Source: Escherichia phage vB_EcoM_PhAPEC2. From it: a stretch of 64,000 nt of DNA. Position numbers and translations under genes: made by a program. Shown here one piece after another: positions 1-41,774 of this stretch; the stretch's first letter is position 1, and each line of letters starts with the position of its first letter. The notes below the pieces were generated by a model. The model was not told where the DNA came from, ran no database searches, and saw nothing but the letters and a program-made list of their open reading frames with translations. The stretch is taken from sequence record NC_024794.1. One strand, given 5' to 3'.

Positions 1-189
1 CAACAAGGCTTCAAGCTTAACGATATCGCTGGTACGTTCAAATTTGCGAGTATCTATCTTACTAGCAAGTTCAGAAATACGTGCTAATAGACTTTCAGCT
101 TCAACCAAAGCTGCACCTAGCTTAGTCGCAAATGTGTCAGTAGCTTCGCTAAGAATAGATTCTGATAAAAATTCACTATATGTTTTCAT
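1..189 (-). CDS. Internal-protein-like gene, N-terminal fragment (runs off window); ipIII-like position downstream of e
   Basis: Minus-strand ATG at 189 overlaps the e stop (ATGA); translation begins [10 protein letters not shown]..., matching the T4 internal-protein capsid-targeting sequence (IPIII: MKTYQEFIAE, recalled). Confidence 0.5.
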
Positions 190-674
190 ATATACGCTTT
201 CCAAGTTCCTGTTTTAAATGTTGAGATTACGCGTTTCGCGCGATTAGGTGTCTGACGATACCATTTAGATTTGGCTAGATTTACTGCCGCTTCGTCCCAA
301 CGTTTCTGTTGAAGCATACGAAGAGAATTAGTAAAACCAGCGACGCCTGCTACACCCATTTGGAAGACCATATTGATCAATGCACATCGACGAACCGCAT
401 CTAAAGAATCATATACCGGTTTAAGTTTAGCATTACCTAAGATTCCGCGAACGGCTTTATCAACGTCTTCATTAAATAGCTTTTCAGCCTCATCAAGGGT
501 AATTGTACCGTTGCATTTACGACCGATCATTCTGTCAAGTTCAGCTTTAGCTACGGCTAAAGACGGGTTCTTTGTTACTAAATGGCCTATGCCAATCGTC
601 CAAAAGCCTTCAGTGTCTTTGTATAAAGTCAGTCTAAGACCTTCGTCGTTACGAAGCATTTCAAATATATTCAT
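186..674 (-). CDS. e: Endolysin (T4 lysozyme)
   Basis: [32 protein letters not shown]... is near-identical to T4 lysozyme; GGAGG Shine-Dalgarno before the ATG at 674 (the ORF track extends to a GTG at 686). Confidence 0.95.
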
Positions 675-708
675 AATACCTCCCACGTTTATAGGAGGTA
701 TTTATTAC

Positions 709-1167
709 TTATAGGAGGGTAGTGAGCACCTTATATAATGATTTGCCCATTACATATTCCCATTGAGAAGGTTTAATTAAAGCGAATGCATCAAATTCAG
801 GAATCTGACGTCCATCTGGGAATGTATGATAGGAATTACAAATACTGTTTCTGAATTGCTCGTGCTCTACAGGGATGGTATATAGGAACAGATGAATATT
901 CTTATTGTCTGAGTAATGATGTTCGCCTAGGTCTTTCAGGAAGGCAGGGTCATATTGTGTAAACCCAGTTTCTTCTTCGCATTCACGAATAGCGGCTTCG
1001 ATAGGAGATTCGCCAGGTTCGACACGGCCTTTAGGAATATCCCACCGATGAGCTAATGCACCTTTAGGACGAGAACCAGTTACACGGCCCATGAATAACT
1101 CTTTATCTTTTGTCATGAAGATAATACCGGCTGATAGTTCTTTCACTTTATTTTTCTTACTCATCAT
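709..1167 (-). CDS. nudE: Nudix hydrolase
   Basis: Nudix box GRVEPGESPIEAAIRECEEETGF; adjacent to e as T4 e.1/nudE. Confidence 0.8.
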   Translation of the reverse strand: MMSKKNKVKELSAGIIFMTKDKELFMGRVTGSRPKGALAHRWDIPKGRVEPGESPIEAAIRECEEETGFTQYDPAFLKDLGEHHYSDNKNIHLFLYTIPVEHEQFRNSICNSYHTFPDGRQIPEFDAFALIKPSQWEYVMGKSLYKVLTTLL

Positions 1168-1408
1168 CTCGGTCCCATGATTTGGCCATTAATTCGGACA
1201 TAAATTCTTCAATGCGCGTTTCTTTAGACGGACTTTCACTATTAGAGACCGCAAGTTTGTAATCTGCAATAGGACGGAACAAATCAAGGTCCATATTAAG
1301 ATCGTCTTTGATTTTTTCTTCTGACACATCTTTATCGTATGTGTACAGATAACTATCACATGATTCTGATTTAATGTAAATTGCTATACTCATCTCAAAT
1401 TCCTGCAT
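1157..1408 (-). CDS. Hypothetical early protein (83 aa)
   Basis: ORF in the minus-strand early operon; start overlaps the upstream stop. Confidence 0.45.
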   Translation of the reverse strand: MQEFEMSIAIYIKSESCDSYLYTYDKDVSEEKIKDDLNMDLDLFRPIADYKLAVSNSESPSKETRIEEFMSELMAKSWDRDDE

Positions 1409-1881
1409 TCGGTAATAAAACGTTCAACTTCATTATTCTTGGCTTTTATCTTGTCTTTATGTTCTTGTAAACTACTTTTAATAAGATTAATAATGATGGC
1501 AGCGGTACCACCGCCAATGATGCCACCAACAACACTTATGATACTAGATGCTAATAAGATAGCAATAATATCAACAAAACCGAAAGAACTCACCTTAGTA
1601 CTAAAAAACCACACTGACGGTACAAATATAATCCATCCTGTTATCCATTGGCACTTATTGAAAAACTTTTCAAGCTCAGCTTGAGTTGTTCGTATTACTT
1701 CATCGATAGGTTGATATCCGTTAATGTATCTGTTCACAATAATACCTGCTGGCTGGTCGATTTTAAATTCTTGGCAAATATGTTTCACTAAGTAGGATGG
1801 ACATCCTGTCCAATCTACTGAATAGTATGAAATACCTTCATTGCCATCGTCTATATTAGACCAATATGTTTTGTTAATCAT
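1390..1881 (-). CDS. Membrane protein with C-terminal ExFIxECR tail
   Basis: Gly/Ile-rich predicted TM segment; C-terminus ERFITECRNLR; TAATG overlap with the upstream gene. Confidence 0.5.
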   Translation of the reverse strand: MINKTYWSNIDDGNEGISYYSVDWTGCPSYLVKHICQEFKIDQPAGIIVNRYINGYQPIDEVIRTTQAELEKFFNKCQWITGWIIFVPSVWFFSTKVSSFGFVDIIAILLASSIISVVGGIIGGGTAAIIINLIKSSLQEHKDKIKAKNNEVERFITECRNLR

Positions 1882-2567
1882 TACCAGCCTTCCATAGGGA
1901 ATTCCAGATAAACTTGAGCATTGACACGAATTTCATTGGTAATCTTTTTAACTCGATCTGTATTACGAGATACACGTCCGAACCAACGCCATCCGTTACT
2001 AATTGCACGAGAACCAGTGTGCCATGTTTGCCAATCAAACTGAAGAAGAGTACGGTCTGGAGCTTCCCATTTCTCTAGTTCGCCTTTTTCGATTTTTTCG
2101 AGGACTTCTTTGTGCCACTGACGATAGATAAGTTCGCCATCAGGAATCTGACTGAACTCTGCAGTTCCTGTTGCAAAATGAGTAGGACACACACCAGCGT
2201 TAACAAGACCAAGAATATGTTCAGAATGGTAACGAGGGTTGTCATAGTCAGGTTGTCCTGCAGTAATAAAGTGTTGACCAACTGGAATATCAGGGCGTGG
2301 TACGTCATCATGGTGATAGCCTGGGATTGCAGGATACCAACCAGGCATCAGCATGTGGACTCGTGAATCAAATACAACCTGGTCGGTGTTCCAATCATCA
2401 GGCAAGTTCATAATGAAAGAGCGAGTAATAGGACCGCCGTTATTATAAGCAAATTCTAAACTACAGTTGAAGAACATAGGCTCGTTCTTGATTTTATCAT
2501 TAGAAATGCTACCGGCAAAACCACCTACTGCACGAGCTTGACTATTAAACACTTTAGAACTATTCAT
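1881..2567 (-). CDS. Hypothetical protein (228 aa)
   Basis: Long ORF with His/Asp-rich segments; no family recognised. Confidence 0.5.
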   Translation of the reverse strand: MNSSKVFNSQARAVGGFAGSISNDKIKNEPMFFNCSLEFAYNNGGPITRSFIMNLPDDWNTDQVVFDSRVHMLMPGWYPAIPGYHHDDVPRPDIPVGQHFITAGQPDYDNPRYHSEHILGLVNAGVCPTHFATGTAEFSQIPDGELIYRQWHKEVLEKIEKGELEKWEAPDRTLLQFDWQTWHTGSRAISNGWRWFGRVSRNTDRVKKITNEIRVNAQVYLEFPMEGW

Positions 2568-2568
2568 A

Positions 2569-2874
2569 TTATTTTCCTCGACATTCTTTAATGAAATTTT
2601 CTAGATTGGTAGATTCAATAGCTTTTTTACGAGCTTCTGCGTGTTCTTCTTCAGACAATTTACGTTTATAATTGACCCAGACATTATGGTCTAAACCAGT
2701 TGTGGCATATAATATCAAAGCTCCGACGAATAATAAAAACGGTGATAAAAATATACAACCAGGAACACCATCCATACTGTAAGCCTTTTGTAATACGGCA
2801 ACAGAAAGAGCTGCGTAAAAAAGCGATGCAAATATTGTAAAAAGACCGATTCGGTTGGTTTCGCCTAATTTCAT
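2569..2874 (-). CDS. Small membrane protein with C-terminal ENFIKECR tail
   Basis: Two hydrophobic segments; C-terminus ENFIKECRGK; early promoter cassette upstream at 2903-2931. Confidence 0.55.
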   Translation of the reverse strand: MKLGETNRIGLFTIFASLFYAALSVAVLQKAYSMDGVPGCIFLSPFLLFVGALILYATTGLDHNVWVNYKRKLSEEEHAEARKKAIESTNLENFIKECRGK

Positions 2875-2902
2875 AATATTCTCCTCATGTTTTAATAGGA
2901 CT

Positions 2903-2931
2903 ACTATAACATAGTCCTATAATTGTGTAAA
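2903..2931 (-). promoter_or_regulatory. Early promoter cassette (PeSL-like) with palindrome
   Basis: Minus strand: TTTACA, 17 bp, TATAGT; the -10 is embedded in palindrome ATAGGACTA-N7-TAGTCCTAT. Confidence 0.6.
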
Positions 2932-2944
2932 CAGTTTTGTGAAG

Positions 2945-3901
2945 TTATTTGAAAGGTTTTACCATATGGAAATTTTGTTTGAAACGTTTTACGTAATCGT
3001 CGTGTCCTAAGCTTTGGTACATACTTACAACTTTGCTGTAGTTTTCCCAGGCGTATTCACGGAACCAACCGGAGGTGATGCTTGTGCAGACTTTTTCTAA
3101 TGCCATCATGAAACTGGCTTCAGGGTTAATTTTAAAGTCATTAGGAATCTGAGAACGTTCTAACGCTAGTACACATGATTCTTCGTATACACCGGCCAAT
3201 TTGACCATTTCTGGTAACGATTCGAACTTCTCGCGTGAGGTCATGACTTCAGAACCGTCTTTCATGTAAAACGTATAAGCCGGACGGTCTGTTAGTGCAA
3301 TGGCTTCATGAATAGTATCATGGTCATATGTATAGATGTCATCTTTAAAGAACGCACTTTTAGAAGTGTCAAGAACTGGGTGAGCATAGTTCAAAGTTTC
3401 TTTCTGGCGTTTCAGCATAATTTCAGTAAGTTCATCGTTCAGTGTAACACCTTTACCACGAAGATACTGGATATGGTTCATAGTCTTTAAAAAGAATGGA
3501 TTATTTTTCTTGAAACGATGAGACATTTTAATTGCAAGACATATCTCAGGAGTTGCCCAGTAAAACCCGGTCAAACGATCTTTAGTCAAATTTTTCTTGG
3601 CGTATTTTAAAAGGTCATAAGAAGACGTGAAATCTTCAGGAGTGAGTTCGCCGATTAATTCACGGACATTAGTGATTGCCGGAACAATATACGCTTCAAA
3701 ATGAGTTTCGCGTCCGTTATGGAAGCATTTGAAAACTTGGACATCAGGGTTATCTTGGTGAACATATACACCCATCATTTGATTTTTGAATGCATTCCAA
3801 GAACATTGGTCTGCAATAAAGTCCCAGTCACTATTTTTGATAGCGTTAGAATCAATAAGACCATGATAGTGAAGTGCACGAGAACCAATAACTAACATCA
3901 T
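2945..3901 (-). CDS. Putative Pol-beta-superfamily nucleotidyltransferase (318 aa)
   Basis: N-terminal hGS...SDxDh signature (VIGSRALHYHGLIDSNAIKNSDWDFIA) typical of minimal nucleotidyltransferases; no T4 counterpart recalled. Confidence 0.5.
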   Translation of the reverse strand: MMLVIGSRALHYHGLIDSNAIKNSDWDFIADQCSWNAFKNQMMGVYVHQDNPDVQVFKCFHNGRETHFEAYIVPAITNVRELIGELTPEDFTSSYDLLKYAKKNLTKDRLTGFYWATPEICLAIKMSHRFKKNNPFFLKTMNHIQYLRGKGVTLNDELTEIMLKRQKETLNYAHPVLDTSKSAFFKDDIYTYDHDTIHEAIALTDRPAYTFYMKDGSEVMTSREKFESLPEMVKLAGVYEESCVLALERSQIPNDFKINPEASFMMALEKVCTSITSGWFREYAWENYSKVVSMYQSLGHDDYVKRFKQNFHMVKPFK

Positions 3902-3929
3902 AATATTTTCCTCGGATTAATTCATTAAC

Positions 3930-4169
3930 TTAAATTTCACGACATGCGATATTATATTCATCCCAGAGGTCATCATGTGAAGCCTCTACCAATGGAACGA
4001 TTGTACCGTTTATGTCTTCATTATAAGGGCAAATTGTACAGTGCGCGTCTTCGAATCGGATGCCTTTGTGTTCAGATTTTTTATAACGCATATCGAATAT
4101 CTTTGCAAACTTTTCACGAGTAATGGTTTTAGCAACCACTTTGGTTCCAATACTTTCGTAATAAATCAT
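3930..4169 (-). CDS. Hypothetical early protein (79 aa)
   Basis: ORF directly downstream of the early promoter cassette at 4198-4226. Confidence 0.45.
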   Translation of the reverse strand: MIYYESIGTKVVAKTITREKFAKIFDMRYKKSEHKGIRFEDAHCTICPYNEDINGTIVPLVEASHDDLWDEYNIACREI

Positions 4170-4197
4170 TGTGGACTCCGTTTAATTTGATAGGACT

Positions 4198-4226
4198 ACT
4201 ATAACATAGCCCTATCTTGTTGTAAA
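4198..4226 (-). promoter_or_regulatory. Early promoter cassette (PeSL-like)
   Basis: Same architecture and near-identical sequence to 2903-2931 and 11747-11775. Confidence 0.6.
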
Positions 4227-4231
4227 CTGTT

Positions 4232-4429
4232 TTAGCAAGAATAACTAGATGATACCCAGCCTTGAACAGTGATACTATTGTGGGATAATGAGATCGCGTC
4301 CTGGAGATTCAGACCTGCGTTATCTTCAATCCATAATGTAACTTCTTCGCGTTCTTCTGTTGCAATTTGGAACAGGTTTTCCAGGGCAGCTACTGCCGTA
4401 CGTACAGCACAATCTAATTCACGAGACAT
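4232..4429 (-). CDS. Paralog family member, C-terminus GWVSSSYSC
   Basis: Third of three tandem paralogs ending GxWVxSSxxC-stop. Confidence 0.5.
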   Translation of the reverse strand: MSRELDCAVRTAVAALENLFQIATEEREEVTLWIEDNAGLNLQDAISLSHNSITVQGWVSSSYSC

Positions 4430-4438
4430 ATGATTTCC

Positions 4439-4711
4439 TTAACAAGTGTGAGAAGATGCAACCCAACCACCAGTTTCGAGGCTCAGGTTGTAGTCGTATT
4501 GGTAAACGTCGGCCCATTCAGCATAGCCGTTTTTTGTACAACGTTCAAGATCGGCTTTAAGATGTCCTGGTGAATGATAGGTTCCACCCATACCATAAGC
4601 TGGGTACAAGTCGAATGTTGTGTTTTGTTTATCAGCAATTTCTTTGGCAGCCTCAATAGCTGCATAGATTTTTGCTACGGCTTCAGCCAGTTCGGTTTGT
4701 TCTTTAGACAT
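4439..4711 (-). CDS. Paralog family member, C-terminus GGWVASSHTC
   Basis: Shares GGTYHSPG and C-terminal motifs with 4721-5026; the conserved codons differ at synonymous sites. Confidence 0.55.
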   Translation of the reverse strand: MSKEQTELAEAVAKIYAAIEAAKEIADKQNTTFDLYPAYGMGGTYHSPGHLKADLERCTKNGYAEWADVYQYDYNLSLETGGWVASSHTC

Positions 4712-4720
4712 AATGATTCC

Positions 4721-5026
4721 TTAGCACAACGCAGAAGACGAAACCCAAGCACCTTCAGTAATAACGTAACCATTACCTTCACGCTTAACATCGCCACCAT
4801 TATTTTCAATTTCATCTTTCATCCACTGGGATACGATTTCACCCTTAGGATAATAAGTACGACCGCTACCATAATCACCTACAGAAAATGATACGGCATA
4901 TTGGTCTGCGATCTTTGTTGCTTCTTCTTCGATACGTTCAGCTTGATTCAGAAGTTTATAAATTGCATCTGAAGCGGATTTGGCATCATTAAACTCTGGT
5001 ACTTTAATTTCAATAATCTTACTCAT
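4721..5026 (-). CDS. Paralog family member, C-terminus GAWVSSSALC
   Basis: Shares GRTYYPKG and C-terminal motifs; start overlaps the upstream stop (ATGA). Confidence 0.55.
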   Translation of the reverse strand: MSKIIEIKVPEFNDAKSASDAIYKLLNQAERIEEEATKIADQYAVSFSVGDYGSGRTYYPKGEIVSQWMKDEIENNGGDVKREGNGYVITEGAWVSSSALC

Positions 5027-5382
5027 TTTCTACATTCCTTAATAAAGTTTTCAATTGTTTCATTTTCACGTCTAGCTAGGAGTTCATTATAACTAATCAT
5101 TTGAGAAGCGTAAACCTTTTTATTTTTCTTGTTATGGTTTATAAAATCGTAGTAAAAATAGACTACAGTACAAAATGATGCGATGGATGCAAAGGCTTGG
5201 GTGTATCTTAGGTCCTGCCATTGGTCTGTGAATCCACCGGTATTCCCTATAAATCCTAACACAACTCCGTCAATAAGAAATCCAACTAATCCAAAGGCAA
5301 ATCCCATGCCAATACTCATAATAAAAATTAGAATGTTCTCACCAAGAGACGGCCATACGGTTAAGAGTTGAGGCTTTTGCAT
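5023..5382 (-). CDS. Small membrane protein with C-terminal ENFIKECRK tail
   Basis: N-terminal TM helices, charged C-terminal half, terminal ENFIKECRK. Confidence 0.55.
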   Translation of the reverse strand: MQKPQLLTVWPSLGENILIFIMSIGMGFAFGLVGFLIDGVVLGFIGNTGGFTDQWQDLRYTQAFASIASFCTVVYFYYDFINHNKKNKKVYASQMISYNELLARRENETIENFIKECRK

Positions 5383-5756
5383 CTTATTTCCTTAACGAAT
5401 TCCATAGCTTCTTCATATTCATATTTTTTAACAGCTTCATCATACTGAGCTTGGGCTTTTGCGCACTGAACTTTCCACTCGCGAACTCGAGCTCTGTGAT
5501 GACGGCCTTGGTGCCAATATCCTGCCCAATTAATAGGCATTAATAAAAACGGTACAATAAGTGGTGCGACGAACATTAATGAAAACGCTGCATCAGACGA
5601 TATAACTTTATTGGAATCTAAAATAGCTCCTATAATCATAAAGATTAAAAATGCTAAAGCTAAAATAGGGCCAAATAGTACTTCGTTTGGGATTAATTTA
5701 CGTTTGTATTCGTATGCCCATGGCTTAATTGGCATGTACAGGGTTGGCTTTGACAT
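5361..5756 (-). CDS. Small membrane protein with EFVKEIRC tail
   Basis: Likely ATG at 5756 (MSKPTLYM...; the track starts at a TTG at 5786); two TM segments. Confidence 0.5.
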   Translation of the reverse strand: MSKPTLYMPIKPWAYEYKRKLIPNEVLFGPILALAFLIFMIIGAILDSNKVISSDAAFSLMFVAPLIVPFLLMPINWAGYWHQGRHHRARVREWKVQCAKAQAQYDEAVKKYEYEEAMEFVKEIRCKSLNS

Positions 5757-6327
5757 ATTCTCTACATTCCATAATAAATTGCTCAAGGATTAAATTGTTA
5801 GTGAAATTAGGACTAACAACCATAGTTTCATAAAGCGCATCAATAGCACTTAAAGCATCAACTCTTTTAAGCAAAGGCTTGCCTTCATACATAGTTTCAG
5901 AATCGACGATTAACGTAAAGTAATATTTTTTATTATCGACTAGAACTTCTGTGTCGATATAAAACATATTAGACCTCAGAAGCTTATCTCTAAAACCATA
6001 ATAATCTTCTGAACGTTCGCTGATATATTCCAATTCAGTGTTTAAACAACAAACAGACCACGTAGGAGCAACGAAATCAGTGAATCTAATATCATGGTCT
6101 GCAACTAGTTTAGCAATAGCTCCGATATCATGAATCATAATACCTGGGGCTAATAAAGATTTTCTGCTATGGCTAGCAGTTTTCTCAGTGGTCTCATAAG
6201 AAGCTGACCAGTACCATTTACGTCCGGTTGCAACATATCGTAATGAATCAACTAAAGACGTAGGTGGATTTACCTTATCTCGGAACTCTTCGAACATTGA
6301 GTCAATATCATTATTTTGGTTTCGCAT
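5725..6327 (-). CDS. Hypothetical protein with C-terminal EQFIMECR motif
   Basis: Likely start MRNQNN at 6327 with an AAGGAG Shine-Dalgarno; the track start at 6372 lies inside the terminator hairpin. Confidence 0.5.
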   Translation of the reverse strand: MRNQNNDIDSMFEEFRDKVNPPTSLVDSLRYVATGRKWYWSASYETTEKTASHSRKSLLAPGIMIHDIGAIAKLVADHDIRFTDFVAPTWSVCCLNTELEYISERSEDYYGFRDKLLRSNMFYIDTEVLVDNKKYYFTLIVDSETMYEGKPLLKRVDALSAIDALYETMVVSPNFTNNLILEQFIMECREYVKANPVHAN

Positions 6328-6344
6328 GTTAACTCCTTTATTAT

Positions 6345-6368
6345 CCAAAAGGAGGACCGGAGTCCTCC
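6345..6368 (-). terminator. Rho-independent terminator
   Basis: GGAGGAC-UCCG-GUCCUCC hairpin followed by UUUUGG on the minus strand. Confidence 0.6.
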
Positions 6369-6376
6369 GCATTATT

Positions 6377-6985
6377 TTATTTCAAAGAGTTAATATATTC
6401 TTGTACATCAGCAGAAGTGGTTTCGACACCGGCTGGAGTGCCATTGAACGTTTCAACACGAGTCAGAGTGTCTTCGATATCAACCTTAGTCAGTGCAGCG
6501 ATTTCAATTACATCATCGGCTGTAGAGATACCAAGGGCATTGGCTGCTCGAGTTTCACGAATGTATTCGAGTTTAATTGCCAGGTTCTGACGAGCATCGT
6601 CAAGTTCAACCACCTTACGAGCAATTTCAATTCGCATAGCGGCATACCCGTCGGCTTTTGTATTAAGTTGTTCGGCAGTTCGACGATACAGAAGACCAAG
6701 TTTAGCATGCATAGTAACATCTTGTCCTTCAGCCAGGAGCTTGCGAATTTCACGTTCCTTAGAAGCGGCTTGCTTGTTCTTTTCATTAACAAGTTCGCGA
6801 ATACGTTTTTCTTCATTAATAGATTTAACAGAAGCCGTTTTTAGTTCTTTGATTTGGGTAATCAACTTATCTGCAGCTGCGTTATACTGTTCTTCGACAG
6901 TCAGATTTTTAGCCATAGCAGTACCCAGTTTAGTGCGGATGAATTCAACAAGTTTCTTCAGTGTGTTCATATTATTACCTTTCAA
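6377..6985 (-). CDS. Coiled-coil protein, possibly PspA/IM30-like
   Basis: About 200 aa, predicted all-helical with heptad-like charged repeats and a PspA-like N-terminal pattern; weak call. Confidence 0.3.
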
Positions 6986-7011
6986 TTGGTGGTTTATTAT
7001 CCAATGAGAGC

Positions 7012-7040
7012 ATTATACTCTGCTCTCAAGAGTTTGTAAA
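7012..7040 (-). promoter_or_regulatory. Early promoter
   Basis: Minus strand: TTTACA, 17 bp, TATAAT, with inverted repeat GAGAGC/GCTCTC around the -10; upstream of 6377-6985. Confidence 0.55.
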
Positions 7041-7268
7041 TTATTTTTTAATCAAATTGACATAAAACTTGGCGTCTTCCGGGTGCATGCCTTCACAGTA
7101 TTCTTCAACCATGAACTTCTTAACAGCTTCATAAGGACCACTCAGATTAAGCTCAGTTGTCCAGAACTTGGAATCTTGGGCTGAATCGATACGAACTTCA
7201 GGGTGACGGTTGCGAATAACTTCTTCGGTATATTCATAATCAACGACATCAATACTAACTTTAGCCAT
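7041..7268 (-). CDS. Hypothetical early protein (75 aa)
   Basis: Preceded by early promoter cassette 7299-7327 and Shine-Dalgarno AGAGGAG. Confidence 0.5.
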   Translation of the reverse strand: MAKVSIDVVDYEYTEEVIRNRHPEVRIDSAQDSKFWTTELNLSGPYEAVKKFMVEEYCEGMHPEDAKFYVNLIKK

Positions 7269-7298
7269 TTTGTTTCTCCTCTGTAGTTGATAAGTCTA

Positions 7299-7327
7299 TA
7301 GTATCACCATCCTTGGTGCTTGTACAT
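7299..7327 (-). promoter_or_regulatory. Early promoter cassette (PeSL-like)
   Basis: Minus strand: TGTACA, 17 bp, TGaTACTAT; leader duplicated at 44504-44535. Confidence 0.55.
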
Positions 7328-7334
7328 CATTATT

Positions 7335-7640
7335 TTATTTTTTCCAACTTAACAACTTGTAGTGTCCTTCATTCGTACGAGGTTTATCCCAAGAAACACT
7401 AATATATGATTCGCTGTCAATAGAAGTCGCCGGGTTTTTCTCTACCGTAAGACCTTCACTTTCCAACCATTCAATAGTATTTGCACATAAATCAGAAGAA
7501 CACCTAATCGGGAACCGGCAAGATTTTTCACCTTTAGCTGCAGTGTTATACATCTTTTCTAAAATACGCTTTTGCACGTTTTTAAAAATAGTTTCAGCAG
7601 ATTCTTCAGATTTTTTATTCAGTTCAGTATAAAGACTCAT
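7335..7640 (-). CDS. Hypothetical early protein (about 101 aa)
   Basis: Start chosen at MSLYTELN; the first ATG (7667) lies inside the 3' arm of the hairpin at 7660-7687. Confidence 0.4.
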   Translation of the reverse strand: MSLYTELNKKSEESAETIFKNVQKRILEKMYNTAAKGEKSCRFPIRCSSDLCANTIEWLESEGLTVEKNPATSIDSESYISVSWDKPRTNEGHYKLLSWKK

Positions 7641-7659
7641 AACATTCTTCTCATTAATA

Positions 7660-7687
7660 GGGCTCATAATATCTTAATCATGAGCCC
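7660..7687 (-). terminator. Hairpin between early genes that sequesters a start codon
   Basis: 8-bp stem GGGCTCAT/ATGAGCCC with 12-nt loop; the first ATG of the downstream ORF lies in the 3' arm. Confidence 0.4.
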
Positions 7688-7697
7688 ATGTACACAT

Positions 7698-7973
7698 TTA
7701 TTTCATATTATTGAAATAATCTTCCGCATCAAAATCGTTATCATGGTAAACTTTGGTAGACGATTTGGCGTAGCCTTCGGCCGAGAACATATTAATCACA
7801 ACTTTAATTGTATACCACTGTCCGTCTTCATTACCCATTACTGCGTAAGTTTCAAACATCGGATGGTCAGGTCCAATAACTTTAATATCATTCACCGTAC
7901 GTCCGAAATCTTCTGGAACACATTTCATAAAGAAGTTGAACAGTTCACCGTAATTATCCATTTCATTCTCCAA
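7698..7973 (-). CDS. Hypothetical early protein (91 aa)
   Basis: Downstream of early promoter cassette 8004-8032. Confidence 0.5.
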   Translation of the reverse strand: MENEMDNYGELFNFFMKCVPEDFGRTVNDIKVIGPDHPMFETYAVMGNEDGQWYTIKVVINMFSAEGYAKSSTKVYHDNDFDAEDYFNNMK

Positions 7974-8003
7974 GTTTTTTCTGTATCGGTAGTTGATAGT
8001 TGT

Positions 8004-8032
8004 ATAGTACCACGGAAGAACAGGGATGTAAA
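8004..8032 (-). promoter_or_regulatory. Early promoter cassette
   Basis: Minus strand: TTTACA, 17 bp, TGgTACTAT. Confidence 0.55.
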
Positions 8033-8101
8033 CAGTTTTGTGAAAAAATTTTTAAAAAGTTCTGGGGAATTCTAGGGCAGGGAGAGGAAAGGCCTAGATA
8101 C

Positions 8102-8129
8102 CAAAAAGCCCTATCATTTAGATAGGGCT
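8102..8129 (-). terminator. Rho-independent terminator after ip-like gene
   Basis: AGCCCUAUC-loop-GAUAGGGCU followed by a U-run on the minus strand. Confidence 0.6.
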
Positions 8130-8135
8130 TTAAAA

Positions 8136-8699
8136 TTATTTACCTAGTTTAGTTATTATAGCTTCGGCAGCAGCTTTTAGCTTAGATGCAGTGTTAATAC
8201 GATTTTTAATTTCAGTATACGCATCGCCAAGAACATCAAGGCTATCAGAATAAACACTTACACTATTGCGTTCGCTATTTGAAATAGAACCTTTAGTTTT
8301 ACGATCAAAATCAGTGTACACGTCTTGAAGATCACGGGCTGCCTTCTTTGCATCATCCAATGCGTCAAGAGCTTTATTCAAAGCATTGACATATTTTTTA
8401 GTGTCAAACATATTCTTAGAAATTTTAACAGGTGCACGTTCAGGAGTAGCTAAGGCGGATTTAGGAACCTGCGTGCCAGATGCCAGTTTCTTAGAAATTT
8501 TGAAAAACGCTTTATTGAAACTATTTTCTTGACTCATCGTAAAAGAACTAGTATCGATGTTATACATTTCAATAGCTTTAGCTTTCCACTTAAGAAAATC
8601 GCCACGGTCTTTTGGATCCAAGTGGAAGAATACTTTAGTAAGATCTGCTTCAGATGGTAATTTTGCTGCTTCGGTTAAAAATTCGGCATAGGTTTTCAT
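8136..8699 (-). CDS. Internal-protein-like (capsid-targeted) protein, 187 aa
   Basis: N-terminus MKTYAEFLTE|A matches the IP capsid-targeting sequence and gp21 L-x-E cleavage pattern; followed by a rho-independent terminator. Confidence 0.6.
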   Translation of the reverse strand: MKTYAEFLTEAAKLPSEADLTKVFFHLDPKDRGDFLKWKAKAIEMYNIDTSSFTMSQENSFNKAFFKISKKLASGTQVPKSALATPERAPVKISKNMFDTKKYVNALNKALDALDDAKKAARDLQDVYTDFDRKTKGSISNSERNSVSVYSDSLDVLGDAYTEIKNRINTASKLKAAAEAIITKLGK

Positions 8700-8789
8700 T
8701 TAAAATCCTTGAAATAATTTATCGGTTTGTTATTAATTATTTATTACTTTGGTATTATCAGTAACAGCATTCTCCGAGTGAGTCAAACT

Positions 8790-8816
8790 AAAAAGCCCCA
8801 ACCTTTCGGAAGGGGC
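8790..8816 (-). terminator. Rho-independent terminator after ip-like gene
   Basis: GCCCC...GGGGC hairpin followed by a U-run; same element as 9332-9363. Confidence 0.6.
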
Positions 8817-8822
8817 ATTCTA

Positions 8823-9287
8823 TTATTTAATTTGTTTAGCAGACCAGATACGGTCTTTAATAAGTTTTTGGATATCTTCAACATACTCAAGGCTATGAGC
8901 GTGAGGATTATCTTTGAAGCTATGTGCTCGTGCCAGTTTCTGGCCTTCTGTTTTGATTACTAAAAGCTCTTTAAGAATTGCTTCATACTTAGAAATAATT
9001 CCTTTGGCGATATTTTTTTCTTGAGCGGCTTTAGGGTCCGCTTTTGGCACAGGTGCTTTACCTGTAGCTTTCTGGAACAATTCACCTGATGCAGCTAGGC
9101 TTTTAAAAACTCGGCTAACAGTATTAGCATTAGTAAAACCTTCGGCTTTAAAATCTCTAATAAAACGGAAACGTTCTTCATCAGAGGCGTCTTTGTAAGA
9201 ATATTTACCTGCTTGAATTGCTGCAATCGCAGCGGCTTTTACATCTGAACTAGATTGTTCAGTCAAAAATTCAGCGTATGATTTCAT
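8823..9287 (-). CDS. Internal-protein-like (capsid-targeted) protein, 154 aa
   Basis: N-terminus MKSYAEFLTE|Q; same terminator hairpin downstream as the neighbouring ip-like gene. Confidence 0.6.
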   Translation of the reverse strand: MKSYAEFLTEQSSSDVKAAAIAAIQAGKYSYKDASDEERFRFIRDFKAEGFTNANTVSRVFKSLAASGELFQKATGKAPVPKADPKAAQEKNIAKGIISKYEAILKELLVIKTEGQKLARAHSFKDNPHAHSLEYVEDIQKLIKDRIWSAKQIK

Positions 9288-9331
9288 GTTGCTTTTCCTA
9301 AGTTAATTAACTTATCTATTTATTATTATGC

Positions 9332-9363
9332 CAAAAAAAAAGCCCCAACCTTTCGGAAGGGGC
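9332..9363 (-). terminator. Rho-independent terminator closing the tRNA/small-RNA transcription unit
   Basis: Same hairpin as 8790-8816 followed by nine U. Confidence 0.65.
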
Positions 9364-9365
9364 TA

Positions 9366-9520
9366 TGCCTTGCGGCAACCTTGTCGGGGTTCCACCTGCT
9401 AAGGCAAGTGTTTGTACGAAACGCCGGGATTCGAACCCGGTTATTAAGTAGTTGACGCTACTCAATATTTTTAAAAGGCCATATCTCGACCATATCCGAA
9501 CGTTCCGTCAAAAACGCTAC
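9366..9520 (-). ncRNA. tRNA-like structured RNA (T4 rnaC/rnaD-like?)
   Basis: Canonical T-arm CCGGGTTCGAATCCCGG (plus 9424-9440) and a 7-bp acceptor-like pairing (CGGAACG/CGTTTCG), but no canonical D or anticodon arm; 310-nt ORF-free interval ending in the terminator at 9332-9363. Confidence 0.3.
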
Positions 9521-9675
9521 TCGGCTTACGGCAAAGATATTTCCTCGAATCGATAATTCGGTGCGCCGTTTCTGCTGTGATGTAAGGGGATATTAACAAA
9601 TCGTAAAGATTTATTAAGACCAGTCCTTACTCAGGGAACATCAGTCCGACGACTTACCGGTAGCGACCCGGCTTC

Positions 9676-10020
9676 TTATTTTGACATATCATCAATTTGC
9701 TCTCGACGCCGACGCCATAGATTAATCACTTCATTACCACATTCGGCGTTTGGTATATGACGGCAATAATATAATGATTCGCGTTTCTGGAACCGATGTT
9801 GCAATGGGATTTCGTTTAAAAGGTCTTTACGGTCAAAGTATTCAAAACTAGTTAACCCAGAACGATTTTTAATGAACTTCCAATGTCCAAATTCATTTTG
9901 AACATAGATGTAATCGGCATGCTGATACAACGAATTAATCAATCGGTCTGAAATAACTGTATCATGTTCGTTAAAATAAAACGTTAAATCATGAACTACT
10001 AAGTAAACATTACCTTTCAT
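9676..10020 (-). CDS. Hypothetical protein (114 aa) in the tRNA region
   Basis: ORF with a GAGGAAA Shine-Dalgarno, 20 nt downstream of the tRNA-Arg 3' end. Confidence 0.5.
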   Translation of the reverse strand: MKGNVYLVVHDLTFYFNEHDTVISDRLINSLYQHADYIYVQNEFGHWKFIKNRSGLTSFEYFDRKDLLNEIPLQHRFQKRESLYYCRHIPNAECGNEVINLWRRRREQIDDMSK

Positions 10021-10039
10021 ATTTTCCTCACTTATTAAA

Positions 10040-10115
10040 TGGTCGAGACAGTAGGGATCGAACCTACGACCTAGGACTTAGAAGGTCCTTGCTCTTCCTT
10101 CTGAGCTATGCCTCG
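10040..10115 (-). tRNA. tRNA-Arg (anticodon TCT)
   Basis: Hand-folded cloverleaf: acceptor CGAGGCA/TGTCTCG, anticodon loop CTTCTAA, T-arm GTAGGTTCGATCCCTAC, CCA encoded. Confidence 0.8.
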
Positions 10116-10119
10116 TATT

Positions 10120-10194
10120 TGGCGGACGTGCATGGATTCGAACCATGGGCCAATTGATTAACAGTCAACTGCTCTACCACTGAGCTACACATCC
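10120..10194 (-). tRNA. tRNA-Asn (anticodon GTT)
   Basis: Acceptor GGATGTG/CACGTCC, D-arm GCTCAGTGGTAGAGC, anticodon loop CTGTTAA, T-arm CATGGTTCGAATCCATG, CCA encoded. Confidence 0.75.
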
Positions 10195-10198
10195 AAAT

Positions 10199-10273
10199 TG
10201 GTGGCCCTGGCTGGTTTCGATCCAGCTACCTATCAGTTATGAGCTGACAGCTCTCCCATTGAGCTACAGGGCC
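10199..10273 (-). tRNA. tRNA with anticodon CAT (Met, or Ile if lysidine-modified)
   Basis: Perfect acceptor GGCCCTG/CAGGGCC, anticodon loop CTCATAA, CCA encoded. Confidence 0.7.
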
Positions 10274-10335
10274 TAAATAACTTTCTATTATGAAAGGCAC
10301 TTTAGAGCACCTTTGGTAATAGAGGGTATGAATTA

Positions 10336-10362
10336 ATAATAACACATAATTCTTAAAGCAAA
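10336..10362 (-). promoter_or_regulatory. Putative T4-type middle promoter for the tRNA cluster
   Basis: Minus strand reads MotA box TTGCTTTA, 12-bp spacer, TATTAT; about 60 nt upstream of the tRNA cluster. Confidence 0.4.
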
Positions 10363-10868
10363 TCAATCATTTTAACAGTCGGCAAAACGATTTCTTCTTC
10401 AATATAAGCAAATTCGACACGTTCAACTACACGCAAGAAATCATAATCATAATATTCAGAAGCATGGCCAAGAATATCAGTGAGACCTTCTGATACCAAA
10501 TATCCGTTCTCACGGAACAGGTCAAATACACGTGATTCGTCTTCTTCAGATTTATTGCCGAGGTCGACTTCAATATCAAAGACCTTTTTAATGAATTCTG
10601 GATAAAGCTGGTCTGAGAACAGTCCTTCAACCAAGTATTCATAGATTAAAAGCGAGCAATCACTGAATAGTGTATTACCACAGTAACGTTCAGCTTTAGT
10701 GCTGGAATGACGACTCTTAAATTTCTTCAAGAGATATTTAAACTGCTGGAGCTCATGCTCTTCCACACCAAATAATGTTTTGGTTTTATAGTTGTCACCA
10801 TCATTTTCGTAGGTAGTGACATCAATTACGTAGCCCTTAGGAATTGTACTGCCTAAACAAATATTCAT
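10353..10868 (-). CDS. Hypothetical early protein (171 aa)
   Basis: ORF in a coupled operon. Confidence 0.5.
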   Translation of the reverse strand: MNICLGSTIPKGYVIDVTTYENDGDNYKTKTLFGVEEHELQQFKYLLKKFKSRHSSTKAERYCGNTLFSDCSLLIYEYLVEGLFSDQLYPEFIKKVFDIEVDLGNKSEEDESRVFDLFRENGYLVSEGLTDILGHASEYYDYDFLRVVERVEFAYIEEEIVLPTVKMIDLL

Positions 10869-10872
10869 TTAC

Positions 10873-11163
10873 TCACCGTACCATATTAATGTAATTATAT
10901 TCAATGCAACGTAATTTCAAAGGATTCTTGAAAATATCATATTCAAGAGGGCCTTTTTCTGTTTCAATAAAGAAATCAAAGTTAACTGTGTTAAATTTAT
11001 CATCTTCACAGAGTAATTTAACTTGCGAAGATGAACGGTCGATATAAACCTTTTCAACCTCAAAGTTAGTCAGAATACCATAGTCATTAACTAGTGCTTT
11101 AGCTGCACGTTGATCGCTTTCATATCCATTCTCGACAGATTTTACTTTAGCATAAAGAATCAT
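10873..11163 (-). CDS. Hypothetical early protein (96 aa)
   Basis: ORF; start overlaps the upstream stop (ATGA). Confidence 0.45.
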   Translation of the reverse strand: MILYAKVKSVENGYESDQRAAKALVNDYGILTNFEVEKVYIDRSSSQVKLLCEDDKFNTVNFDFFIETEKGPLEYDIFKNPLKLRCIEYNYINMVR

Positions 11164-11540
11164 GAGTGTTCCACCACTTCAAAGGTATGAGCATCAACAA
11201 TATGATACCAGTCAAAATTTTCTTCTGCGTTTTTATAAATTTCGCGAAGAGCCTCAACAGTTTTTCCTGTAGCAACAAGGTCGTCAATACCACCAAGAGG
11301 ATAACAGTCATAACCAGCAAACAGAAGGAAATTAATAGTTTCTGTAGGTTCTGGATGCAGAACTCCGTTATCGTCTACCACTTCAAAGAAAGTGTAAGAA
11401 GGAGTACAAGTTTTAATCCAGGCCCATGCTTGAGCCGCTGAATCAAATGGTCTGCGTATCAAACGACAATCAGGGTCTTTAGAAGGATTTGCTTCAAAAT
11501 CCGCATATACATGATATTTCATTTTACTCACCTTTTGCAA
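11160..11540 (-). CDS. Hypothetical early protein (about 120 aa)
   Basis: ORF; two alternative ATG starts (MQKVSK / MKYHVY). Confidence 0.45.
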   Translation of the reverse strand: MQKVSKMKYHVYADFEANPSKDPDCRLIRRPFDSAAQAWAWIKTCTPSYTFFEVVDDNGVLHPEPTETINFLLFAGYDCYPLGGIDDLVATGKTVEALREIYKNAEENFDWYHIVDAHTFEVVEHS

Positions 11541-11730
11541 TTTTATCCATAACGATAGCGATTAAGCCGATTAGAAATGCTACTACCAATGAGATAGAGT
11601 TTTCAGTTGTTGTCAGTAGTCCACAAATGAATCCTACAAACATCGAAAAACTAAAAGCCATTGAAGCAATTACTACAGCAACATTACGAATCAGTTCAGC
11701 GCGTTTCATTTTATTTCTCCATTTACTCAT
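11524..11730 (-). CDS. Small membrane protein (62-68 aa)
   Basis: Two hydrophobic segments; the likely start is the second ATG (MKRAEL, GGAG Shine-Dalgarno); early promoter cassette 11747-11775 upstream. Confidence 0.45.
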   Translation of the reverse strand: MSKWRNKMKRAELIRNVAVVIASMAFSFSMFVGFICGLLTTTENSISLVVAFLIGLIAIVMDKIAKGE

Positions 11731-11746
11731 TTGTTTTGATAGGACT

Positions 11747-11775
11747 ACTATAACATAGTCCTATCGTGTTGTAAA
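11747..11775 (-). promoter_or_regulatory. Early promoter cassette (PeSL-like)
   Basis: Third copy of the TAGGACTA palindrome cassette: TTTACA, 17 bp, TATAGT. Confidence 0.6.
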
Positions 11776-11779
11776 CTAC

Positions 11780-12067
11780 TTACAGAAGAGTTTTTGCAAT
11801 AATTTTAAGCTGAGCTACAGAAATATGCTTAGCTTTAAACAGTGCGGTCTCTTCAGCCGGAGAGATAACAATAGTAGCGCCGTCTTTCTTAGCAGACCAT
11901 CCGTCCCCTAAGTAAACAGTACCTTTTACTTCTTCACCGTCAACCAGACTAATCATTGGTTTACCCTCACGTCCTTTATTTGTTTTAATAACTTCAGAAG
12001 TAAGGGATGCTTCGGTCAGAGTAGAAACGTTAGCAACAGGTGATATAAATTCTTTATAGGTTTTCAT
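11780..12067 (-). CDS. Internal protein I-like (capsid-targeted), 95 aa
   Basis: N-terminus MKTYKEFIS... with LTE at residues 17-19; same size and position as T4 ipI next to 57B; own early promoter at 12102-12130. Confidence 0.6.
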   Translation of the reverse strand: MKTYKEFISPVANVSTLTEASLTSEVIKTNKGREGKPMISLVDGEEVKGTVYLGDGWSAKKDGATIVISPAEETALFKAKHISVAQLKIIAKTLL

Positions 12068-12101: not shown

Positions 12102-12130
12102 ATAGTATCACACCATCATCCTTATGTAAA
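12102..12130 (-). promoter_or_regulatory. Early promoter cassette upstream of ipI-like gene
   Basis: Minus strand: TTTACA, 17 bp, TGaTACTAT, with inverted repeat AGGATGAT/ATCATCCT. Confidence 0.55.
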
Positions 12131-38869: not shown

Positions 38870-40441
38870 ATGAAATTTAATATCTTAAGTTTGTTTGCTC
38901 CATGGGCAAAAATGGACGAACGTGATTACAAAGACCAAGAAAAAGAAAATTTAGAATCGATCACCTCACCAAAATTAGATGACGGCGCTAAAGAATACGA
39001 AGTATCTGAAAATGAAGCACAGCAAACATATAATGCTATGTTTCAGAGAATGTTCGGTAGTCAAGAACCAGGGCTCAAATCAACCCGTGAATTAATCGAT
39101 ACGTATCGAAATTTGATGACGAACTATGAAGTGGATAATGCAGTCTCTGAAATAGTTTCCGATGCTATTGTATATGAAGATGATACAGAAGTCGTTTCTA
39201 TAAATTTAGACAACACAAAATTTAGTCCAAATATAAAATCAATGGTGTTGGATGAATTTAACGAAGTGTTGAATCATTTATCTTTCCAACGTAAAGGTTC
39301 AGACCATTTTAGGCGTTGGTATGTAGATTCTCGAATTTTCTTCCATAAAATTATTGACCCTAAACGCCCTAAAGAAGGTATTAAAGAGCTTCGTCGTTTA
39401 GACCCACGTCAAGTTCAATATGTCCGTGAAGTTATTACAACCACTGAAGCCGGTGTTAAAATAGTCAAGGGTTATAAAGAATATTTCATTTATGACACAT
39501 CACACGAATCTTATGCTTGTGATGGACGCATATATGAAGCTGGCACAAAAATAAAAATCCCTAAAGCCGCGATTGTTTATGCCCATTCTGGTTTAGTCGA
39601 TTGTTGTGGTAAAAATATCATTGGTTATTTGCATCGGGCTATTAAGCCGGCGAACCAATTAAAACTTCTTGAAGACGCCGTCGTAATTTATCGTATTACT
39701 CGTGCTCCCGATCGTCGTGTATGGTACGTTGATACAGGTAATATGCCTTCAAGAAAAGCAGCAGAACATATGCAACATGTTATGAATACGATGAAAAACC
39801 GTATTGCATATGATGCTACTACAGGCAAGATTAAAAACCAGCAGCATATTATGTCGATGACCGAAGATTATTGGTTACAACGACGTGATGGTAAAGCAGT
39901 AACAGAAGTTGATACATTACCAGGTGCAGATAATACTGGAAATATGGAAGATGTACGTTGGTTCCGTAATGCGCTTTATATGGCTTTACGTATTCCTATT
40001 ACCCGTATTCCAAGTGACCAAGGTGGTATACAGTTTGATGCTGGTACTTCTATTACACGAGATGAATTGACATTTGGCAAATTTATTCGTGAGCTGCAAC
40101 ATAAATTTGAAGAGATATTCCTAGACCCGCTTAAAACCAATTTAATTCTTAAAGGAATTATTACAGAAGATGAGTGGAATGATGAAATAAATAATATTAA
40201 GATAAAATTTCATCGGGATAGTTATTTCTCGGAATTAAAGGATGCTGAGATTCTGGAGCGTCGCATTAATATGCTTCAGATGGCCGAACCATTTATTGGT
40301 AAATATATTTCTCACAGAACAGCTATGAAAGATATTCTTCAGATGTCTGACGAGGAAATTGAACAAGAGGCTAAGCAAATTGAAGAAGAGTCGAAAGAGG
40401 CTCGTTTCCAAGACCCCGACCAAGAACAAGAGGATTTTTAA
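38870..40441 (+). CDS. 20: Portal vertex protein gp20
   Basis: 523 aa (T4 524); order. Confidence 0.95.
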
Positions 40442-40674
40442 TGGACGATTTAATTCAAGCTATTAAATCAAACGACCTCGTTGCTACTCGAAAGTTTTTT
40501 GAAAGTGCAATGGCAGAAAAAACGGTTCGTTTGATTGAAGCACGCAAAGCAGAAATCGCTTCTCAATTTTTGATTGAAGGCGAAGAACCTGAAGAAGAAG
40601 AAAAGAACGCTTCGGAAGACGACGCTGATGAAGGCGATGACGACGAAGACGAAGATGATGAGGACGATGAATAA
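40441..40674 (+). CDS. 67: Prohead core protein gp67
   Basis: 77 aa with acidic tail; position. Confidence 0.8.
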
Positions 40675-41099
40675 TGTATCTTATCCCTGAATCTTATGAA
40701 TTGGTACTCGAAAATGTCGAAGCACTTATTCCTGAAGCACAGGGCCGAATCGATGCATTGTCTTCTGCTCTCGATATTGACGATATAAATACTATTATCG
40801 AGAACATGCTTGAAACTGAAACGGATTTAGCTGTTGCAATGGCTTCCATTATTAATGAAGAACAGTTAAATGAGTTTATCGTTAAACATGTTTCTTCTCG
40901 TGGTGAAGTCACTCGCACTAAAGACCGTAAAACTCGTGAACGTAACGCGTTCCAAACAACTGGTCTTTCTAAAGCAAAACGTAGACAAATCGCTCGTAAG
41001 GTCGTTAAAGCTAAAAAAGCTAACCCTTCAGGCCAAGTTAAAGGCTTGCGTAAGCGTAAAAAAGCTCTTAAACGTCGTAAAGCATTAGGATTAAGCTAA
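40674..41099 (+). CDS. 68: Prohead core protein gp68
   Basis: 141 aa as in T4. Confidence 0.8.
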
Positions 41100-41740
41100 T
41101 GAATAAACCCGAGTTACTTATTGAAACTTGGGGTCAACCCGGTGAGATTATTGATGGCGTTCCAATGTTGGAATCTCATGATGGAAAAGATTCTGGCTTA
41201 AAACCAGGGCTTTATATAGAAGGTATTTTTCTTCAGGCAGAGGTTGTTAACCGAAATAAACGTTTATATCCTAAACGCGTTTTAGAAAAAGCGGTAAGTG
41301 ACTATATTAAAGAACAAGTCGCAACCAAACAAGCCCTTGGAGAATTAAACCATCCACCTCGTGCAAATGTTGACCCCATGCAAGCCGCTATCATTATTGA
41401 AGATATGTGGTGGAAAGGAAACGATGTATATGGACGTGCTAGAATTATTGAAGGCGACCATGGTCCCGGCGATAAATTAGCCGCTAATATACGAGCTGGT
41501 TGGATTCCAGGTGTTTCCTCTCGTGGTCTTGGTTCTTTAACCGACACCAATAAAGGGTACCGTATCGTGAACGAAGGATTTAAATTAACCGTCGGCGTAG
41601 ATGCCGTATGGGGACCTTCTGCTCCAGATGCTTGGGTTACTCCTAAACAAATATCAGAATCAGAAAATTCGGTGGAAATCACCAAAAACAGTGCTGACGA
41701 AGCATTTAAAGCTCTCGCAGAGAGTTTAAAAGCATTATAA
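41099..41740 (+). CDS. 21: Prohead protease gp21
   Basis: 213 aa; position between 68 and 22. Confidence 0.9.
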   Translation: MNKPELLIETWGQPGEIIDGVPMLESHDGKDSGLKPGLYIEGIFLQAEVVNRNKRLYPKRVLEKAVSDYIKEQVATKQALGELNHPPRANVDPMQAAIIIEDMWWKGNDVYGRARIIEGDHGPGDKLAANIRAGWIPGVSSRGLGSLTDTNKGYRIVNEGFKLTVGVDAVWGPSAPDAWVTPKQISESENSVEITKNSADEAFKALAESLKAL

Positions 41741-41774
41741 ATAATAATGTAATCTTAAACCACAGGACACTAAA

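Follow-up and report, generated by a model that had tools for sequence, protein, structure and literature searches.

An RB69-like Escherichia phage encodes four proteins bearing the T4 internal-protein targeting sequence, two of them in candidate terminator-bounded cassettes behind rnaC

Why should four open reading frames (ORFs) scattered over the first 12,067 positions of a stretch of phage DNA begin with nearly the same residues? The window, by which we mean the whole 64,000-nucleotide (nt) stretch of Escherichia phage vB_EcoM_PhAPEC2 analyzed here (NC_024794.1), contains four such ORFs, all on the minus strand, with the coordinates and N termini that an earlier note, made from the sequence alone, had given them. 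That note read the shared start as the T4 internal-protein (IP) capsid-targeting sequence and proposed that the products are injected anti-defense factors. We refer to the ORFs by the names below; a slash marks a cleavage site.

1-189 (read from 189 to 1), minus strand: IPa, truncated where the window stops; 63 N-terminal codons out of a 93-residue tagged protein, a homologue of RB69ORF127c, with the predicted cut after residue 10 followed by SILSE...
8136-8699 (8699 to 8136), minus strand: IPb, 187 residues, beginning MKTYAEFLTE/AAKLPSE...; predicted mature form of 19.6 kDa with an isoelectric point (pI) of 9.5
8823-9287 (9287 to 8823), minus strand: IPc, 154 residues, beginning MKSYAEFLTE/QSSSD...; predicted mature form of 16.0 kDa, pI 9.6
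11780-12067 (12067 to 11780), minus strand: IPI, 95 residues, beginning MKTYKEFIS...LTE; a 19-residue propeptide ending LTE/A, then a 76-residue mature IPI*

The answer that we hold with good confidence is that all four genes encode internal proteins of the T4 type, targeted to the capsid and processed by the prohead protease gp21; for IPI this is near certain. Judged from their sequences, one protein corresponds to a known inhibitor (IPI), one belongs to an annotated family (IPa), and two are unannotated members of the class (IPb and IPc) at an apparently undescribed locus.

The motif itself is real and occurs far beyond chance. A six-frame scan of the whole window for MK.Y.EF matched at the four ORF starts only, compared to 0.0013 matches expected from the window's own amino acid frequencies, and the pattern M-K-x-(Y/F)-x-E-F, in which residue 4 is aromatic and residue 7 is Phe, was found in all four. 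In T4 IPIII, the first ten residues suffice for packaging, foreign proteins included, and mutagenesis has assigned control of targeting to residues 4 and 7 and control of cleavage to residues 8 and 10 (PMC9026906). Residues 4, 7, and 8 of the tag are conserved in 4/4 proteins (Y4, F7, and L or I at 8). Glu10 is present in IPa, IPb, and IPc; IPI has Pro10, and its cleavage motif lies at residues 17-19. Each propeptide closes with the gp21 motif (L/I)-x-E, which is LSE in IPa and LTE in IPb, IPc, and IPI, and the P1' residue is Ser, Ala, Gln, and Ala in IPa, IPb, IPc, and IPI, respectively. The reading of these starts as a T4 capsid-targeting sequence with a gp21 L-x-E site is thus borne out, since the positions mapped in T4 IPIII are kept and the protease and core genes lie within the window. 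The genome that carries the tagged ORFs also encodes gp21 and the gp22/gp67/gp68 core (40441-42587, plus strand), as follows.

38870-40441: gp20, portal
40441-40674, plus strand: gp67, prohead core, 58% identical to T4
40674-41099, plus strand: gp68, prohead core, 81% identical to T4
41099-41740, plus strand: gp21 prohead protease, Pfam Peptidase_S77 (E=3e-107), 88% identical to T4 gp21
41775-42587, plus strand: gp22 scaffold, 76% identical to T4
42605-44173: gp23
44597-45880: gp24

The gp23 maturation site, FLTE/AEIGG, is the same as in T4.

A common N terminus could also be a scar of recombination or translation initiation, in effect a portable 5' junction that serves gene shuffling, with IPb and IPc acting as unpackaged, cytoplasmic accessory proteins. 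Gene junctions in this region do bear conserved modules, such as shared terminators and a Shine-Dalgarno/ATGA junction that imposes F(I/V)xECR C termini, and neither of the two classical IP loci holds IPb or IPc. However, the tag is conserved as a protein: as the earlier note had pointed out, its codons differ synonymously (TAT/TAC, GCC/GCT, TTA/TTG, and ACC/ACT), which argues that the peptide, and not the DNA stretch, is conserved under selection. What is kept, rather than DNA homology, are the very positions that T4 needs for targeting and cleavage, in a tag whose ten residues can package foreign proteins in T4 (PMC9026906). We consider a scar quite improbable and retain capsid targeting as the explanation of the shared start.

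The bodies behind the tags had been described as unrelated to each other and to T4 IPI, IPII, and IPIII. The first part of this claim held: with the tag removed, all Smith-Waterman pairs gave z < 2 against 500 shuffles. The second part held for IPa, IPb, and IPc, which align with IPII and IPIII through the tag alone (shuffle z < 2), but not for the body at 11780-12067, which had been taken as novel and is in fact that of an IPI orthologue, 86% identical to T4 IPI across all 95 residues, with 13 substitutions. The protein matches Pfam PF11634 (IPI_T4) at 165.5 bits (gathering cutoff, 25; E=2.6e-49) over profile positions 1-76 of 76. Residues 1-76 of PDB 2JUB, the solved IPI* chain, align to residues 20-95 (E=7e-41), so that the mature chain begins exactly past the predicted cut at LTE19. 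The mature protein has a predicted pI of 9.0. The gene adjoins 57B, as in T4 and in RB69, where the same gene is named ipI, and an element upstream of it is of the same type and in the same place as one at T4 ipI:

12102-12130, minus strand: early-type promoter, TTTACA-17-TACTAT

IPa cannot be counted as a new find either, since RefSeq and PHROGs already label its family as internal head protein. It shares 98% identity with its full-length counterpart in Escherichia phage ST2, matches phrog_3499 ("internal head protein," E=2e-44), carries the same name in the RefSeq record of phiE142, and belongs to a family represented in 495 phage records; its relatives in Tequatrovirus, at 47% identity, likewise bear the annotation of internal head protein. 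A second candidate cleavage site occupies residues 13-15, reading LSE/A in the window copy and LNE/A in ST2. The gene directly upstream is the following.

186-674, minus strand: gene e (lysozyme), from the ORF list and the RB69 and T4 annotations

The IPa ATG overlaps the gene e stop codon (ATGA), and gene e probably supplies the IPa transcript.

The tag of the RB69 homologue is disturbed. In RB69 (AY303349, positions 1640-1689, corresponding to 140-189 of the window), the loss of 1 nt, compensated 22 nt further on by the insertion of 1 nt, scrambles residues 5-12 of the ORF127c tag to MKTYMNFYQNLS; either RB69 has truly lost the tag or its sequence was misread here. The IPa tag is intact in the window, ST2, Shf125875, and phiE142, the last of which has the variant MKTYNEFLSESI. 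Just past the left edge of the window, the matching region of ST2 (935-1929) contains three further tagged ORFs flanking denV, which begin MKTYQEFITE (109 residues), MKTYKEFIAE (104 residues), and MKMYQEFIIE (86 residues). The phage thus probably carries at least seven tagged proteins.

IPb and IPc are widespread and unnamed. IPb, with 95-99% identity in nearly all cases, is found in 163 phage records and is a "hypothetical protein" in 163/163; IPc is found in 510 records, 70 of them at 95% identity or more and about 400 at 60-80%, and is a "hypothetical protein" in 40/40 records among the matches listed, of 510. Their mature forms resemble T4 IPII* and IPIII* in size and charge. Searches of NCBIfam gave no match for any of the IPs, PDB profile searches gave none for IPb or IPc, and neither sequence is present in the supplements of PMC12373910. 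The AlphaFold (AF2) models of the two proteins appear to share a layout consisting of the tag, a three-helix domain, a Pro-rich linker, and a long helical hairpin; for IPc, the mean predicted local distance difference test score (pLDDT) is 74.8.

Both proteins also match PHROG 2280, which has no assigned function, end to end (E~1e-53). We did not accept homology between them on this ground: BLASTP aligned the tag alone, the shuffle test on the bodies gave z=1.25, and hhalign returned a 23% probability across a 25-residue C-terminal motif only. A profile of the IPc family run against 1.84 billion representatives produced ten matches, none of them annotated and IPb not among them; all ten were phage-like save one spurious repeat protein. 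Judged from these alignments, PHROG 2280 is probably a composite, and it is possible that IPb and IPc are distant paralogues.

Pieces of these proteins recur in other combinations. The N-terminal domain of IPc (AGKYSYxDxSDESRFQFARDMKAEGF) is found with unrelated C-terminal halves (P0010, P0011, P0021, P0023, P0025), and C-terminal pieces of IPb and IPc occur as fusions with other phage ORFs. Shuffling of domains among IPb/IPc relatives is indicated, or possibly assembly chimeras.

Where do IPb and IPc sit? The earlier note had described each of the two central genes as followed by the same terminator hairpin, suggesting a duplicated or exchanged gene-plus-terminator module. The features of the locus, in the order in which they are transcribed, place the terminators differently.

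9364-9681, minus strand: homologue of rnaD and rnaC with the 3' trailer, from alignment to T4; the insertion site of the IPc-IPb array
9337-9363, minus strand: terminator hairpin, repeat copy 1, 27 nt, AAAAAGCCCCAACCTTTCGGAAGGGGC, upstream of IPc; equals the terminator after rnaC in T4
8790-8816, minus strand: terminator hairpin, repeat copy 2, 27 nt, 100% identical to copy 1, downstream of IPc
8105-8131, minus strand: a different terminator-like hairpin after IPb, only 70% similar to the 27-nt repeat and with another stem, followed by GGTATCTAGGCCTTTCC

The exact repeat thus brackets IPc, and IPb ends with a different hairpin. Positions 9337-9681 are 93% identical to T4 rnaD/rnaC, trailer, and terminator, and the rnaD/rnaC homologues of this Mosigvirus share 96% identity with those of a Tequatrovirus; an Rfam scan of 7900-10400 reported three tRNAs only and no family for rnaC or rnaD. 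In T4, GGTATCTAAGCCTTTCC and the e.8 promoter come directly after the rnaC terminator. The window has, in order, terminator (9337-9363), the octamer AATAAATA, IPc, terminator (8790-8816), AATAAATA again, IPb, hairpin (8105-8131), GGTATCTAGGCCTTTCC, and the e.8 promoter, where GGTATCTAGGCCTTTCC is the sequence that trails the rnaC terminator in T4. Pairwise comparison across T4, RB69, Shf125875, ST2, phiE142, and SCS4 revealed these states of the locus:

T4: a single terminator, without the 1.2-kb array
RB69: without exactly IPc and one copy of the 27-nt repeat
Shf125875: IPc kept; without IPb and e.8
ST2 and phiE142: IPb and IPc both present
SCS4 (a Tequatrovirus): IPb and IPc both present

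The proposed module is therefore real in a corrected form, that of IPc between two identical terminators, because RB69 lacks exactly IPc and one repeat copy; it was the placement of the terminators that had been misassigned. As read from these alignments, cassettes enter and leave at the terminators, which act as joints. Nucleotide identity between the window and SCS4 is 96.8% for IPb, whereas the adjacent e.8 reaches 86.7% and IPc 73.2%, which suggests that IPb was recently exchanged between Mosigvirus and Tequatrovirus. The tagged genes occupy three loci (IPa behind e, IPI beside 57B, and the IPc-IPb tandem at the rnaC terminator), and the ip genes of T4 have been placed at "two distinct loci" (PMC12373910). 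We put forward tentatively, and with less than even confidence, that the rnaC terminator is a third hotspot for IP genes in T-even phages, at which self-contained cassettes are inserted and deleted by recombination between terminator hairpins, and that IPb has recently spread across genera. We found no description in the literature of the rnaC-e.8 site as an IP locus or of IPb or IPc as internal proteins, Repoila 1994 being represented in this search by the papers that cite it. If the proposal is true, the spread of IPb would be consistent with an injected inhibitor directed against a widespread defense that acts on glucosylated and arabinosylated phage DNA alike.

Each of the two central genes has its own ribosome-binding site, AATAAATA octamer, and terminator. 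The octamer is a one-mismatch form of the late promoter motif TATAAATA, and there are only three on the minus strand in 12.7 kb, located upstream of e, IPc, and IPb at distances of 24-38 nt:

699-706: AATAAATA, aligning with the TATAAATA late promoter motif upstream of T4 e
8738-8745, minus strand: AATAAATA, late-promoter-like, 38 nt upstream of the IPb ATG
9317-9324, minus strand: AATAAATA, late-promoter-like, 29 nt upstream of the IPc ATG

In SCS4, the matching interval between the rnaC terminator and the IPc start contains a perfect TATAAATA. Late expression of IPb and IPc is plausible from these signals. In each unit of the tandem, an octamer resembling a late promoter is followed by a ribosome-binding site, the tagged ORF, and a terminator; units would be gained or lost via recombination between terminator copies.

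What might the proteins do? That T-even phages inject diverse counter-defense proteins sharing only the tag is an idea already in print (PMC3012670, citing Repoila 1994; PMC9026906). The T4 proteins Ip1, Ip2, and Ip3 inhibit three different type IV enzymes of the GmrSD family, one apiece and without cross-protection (PMC12373910), growth of T4 on ECOR17 requires IPIII (PMC9391042), and Bas37_0260, a tagged protein with an unrelated body, inhibits McrBC (bioRxiv 10.1101/2025.11.20.689424). Within the IPI family, GmrSD inhibition is established for T4 IPI* only (PMC3012670, PMC12373910). Mosigvirus DNA contains arabinosylated cytosine, and phage NP, one sequenced Mosigvirus, is sensitive to BrxU, a GmrSD-family enzyme that cuts NP DNA in vitro (PMC13390438); type IV enzymes are therefore a relevant threat to this genus. 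To call the four proteins candidate injected anti-defense factors, as the earlier note did, is thus reasonable; the hypothesis has been published for the class (PMC3012670, PMC12373910, bioRxiv 10.1101/2025.11.20.689424), and it would extend to three of the four by analogy with these cases.

By analogy with T4, we infer that the proteins are packaged, cleaved, and injected. During prohead assembly, the tag would bind each protein into the gp22 scaffolding core, with Tyr4 and Phe7 serving as the targeting residues. The protease gp21 would then cut past the Glu of L-x-E (Glu19 in IPI and Glu10 in the other three), and the mature proteins would remain with the DNA inside the head and accompany it into the host. 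There, they would act before phage gene expression, most likely as stoichiometric inhibitors of modification-dependent enzymes of the type IV, GmrSD/McrBC class. IPI* would block a GmrSD(CT596)-type enzyme, and IPa, IPb, and IPc would each block a different target; for these three, an anti-restriction role is the best inference from the published cases.

Packaged proteins may instead serve the virion itself, in neutralization of DNA charge, head assembly, or DNA ejection. Mature IPb and IPc are basic and, in the models, largely helical, and T4 IPIII mutants show slower head assembly, smaller bursts, and polyheads (PMC9026906). A virion role is nevertheless unlikely: the genes vary in presence and absence among close relatives, laboratory strains support the growth of T4 devoid of its three IPs (PMC9026906), a specific restriction target has been found for each T4 IP (PMC12373910), and IPa* is not basic. 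We therefore favor injected inhibitors over structural proteins.

Several observations weigh against the interpretation of the four proteins as processed, injected anti-restriction factors. In assays, Ip4-10 of related phages did not reproducibly inhibit the further GmrSD variants tested (PMC12373910); a GmrSD target is known for some internal proteins but not for all. Mature IPa has a near-neutral pI of 6.3. The Gln at P1' of IPc (LTE/Q) is unusual compared to the Ala of T4 sites and makes its cleavage less certain. Comparison of folds and sequences offers no hint of a target for IPa, IPb, or IPc: a Foldseek search of PDB with the IPc model gave a best E value of 1, BFVD returned uncharacterized phage proteins only, Pfam gave no hit for the three proteins beyond subthreshold helical-bundle noise for IPb and IPc, and the IPb model is too poor for a fold search (mean pLDDT, 59.5). 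We found no report in the literature of virion proteomics or N-terminal sequencing for the IPa, IPb, or IPc family. An exact TATAAATA late promoter is present upstream of none of the four genes. Finally, IPb is split by a frameshift in RB69 (9914-10476, corresponding to 8136-8699 of the window) into ORF149c, whose first 122 residues are identical, and ORF148c, which holds the last 61 residues; together with the scrambled IPa tag, this means that the genes are dispensable or that the record is faulty.

The split gene, the truncated and chimeric variants in databases (P0010, P0011, P0017-P0021), and the lack of a consensus late promoter could also be taken to mean that IPb, IPc, or both are decaying or unexpressed remnants. 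This is scarcely credible given intact full-length ORFs (IPb in 163 phage records, IPc in about 470), the 95-99% conservation of the IPb protein, and the signals that each gene possesses for itself, namely, a ribosome-binding site, a AATAAATA octamer, and a terminator.

Injected internal proteins act ahead of all phage gene expression, and those with a known function so far all block type IV restriction enzymes, each with narrow specificity. As probable members of this class, IPb and IPc would be two widespread, unannotated candidates to screen against GmrSD-family enzymes, McrBC, and other early-acting defenses. Terminator-bounded cassettes would provide a concrete mechanism for the shuffling of ip genes and a search rule for finding more of them, that of a tagged ORF between terminator copies. 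The result for IPb and IPc extends the established picture and does not change it.

The surroundings of the tagged genes identify the phage. The first 12.1 kb of the window are 98.3% identical to ST2 and 95.5% identical to RB69, and the minus-strand gene order (1, 57A, 57B, ipI, tRNA.4-2, tRNAs, rnaD/rnaC, e.8 ... e.2, nudE, e) agrees with those of RB69 and T4. The window is thus, by sequence, from an RB69-like T-even phage of the genus Mosigvirus, Tevenvirinae. The tRNA cluster (10040-10273, minus strand) comprises Arg(TCT), Asn(GTT), and Met(CAT); tRNA-Asn is found in the window and ST2 and is without annotation in RB69 and Shf125875. Five neighboring genes on the minus strand between 1390 and 6372 have an F(I/V)xECR C terminus in common:

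1390-1881, minus strand: e.2-like
2569-2874, minus strand
5023-5382, minus strand: e.3
5361-5786, minus strand: e.4
5725-6372, minus strand: e.5

Most of these motifs are, in the DNA, AAGGAA TGT AGA AAA TGA junctions, which combine a Shine-Dalgarno sequence with the overlapping start codon of the next gene. Three tandem small ORFs at 4232-5026 (minus strand; 65, 90, and 101 residues), each with GWV(S/A)SSxxC just before the stop, look like a local paralogue family.

How do the four proteins compare to known systems? With T4 IPI, the IPI of the window shares its length, a 19-residue propeptide ending TE/A, the 57B neighbor, and an early-type promoter element. T4 IPI inhibits the GmrSD type IV enzyme of E. 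coli CT596, whereas the window IPI belongs to a genus with arabinosylated, not glucosylated, cytosine (PMC13390438). T4 IPII and IPIII, which inhibit GmrSD(ECOR21) and GmrSD(ECOR17), respectively, share the 10-residue tag and the cleavage site after Glu10 with IPa, IPb, and IPc; with IPb and IPc they also share a mature form that is small and basic. They differ in that no homology of their bodies to IPa, IPb, or IPc was detected and in that IPb and IPc lie at another locus (rnaC-e.8); IPa fills the slot behind gene e that holds ipIII in T4. There is also a likeness in principle to the polymorphic ip genes of T-even phages (Ip4-Ip13, Repoila 1994 as cited in PMC3012670 and PMC12373910) and to Bas37_0260, which also combine unrelated bodies with one conserved tag. 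As described in those citing papers, the polymorphic genes likewise vary in presence and absence among close relatives and undergo modular exchange, and the published sets cover the ipI and ipII/III loci, whereas IPb and IPc reside at rnaC-e.8 instead.

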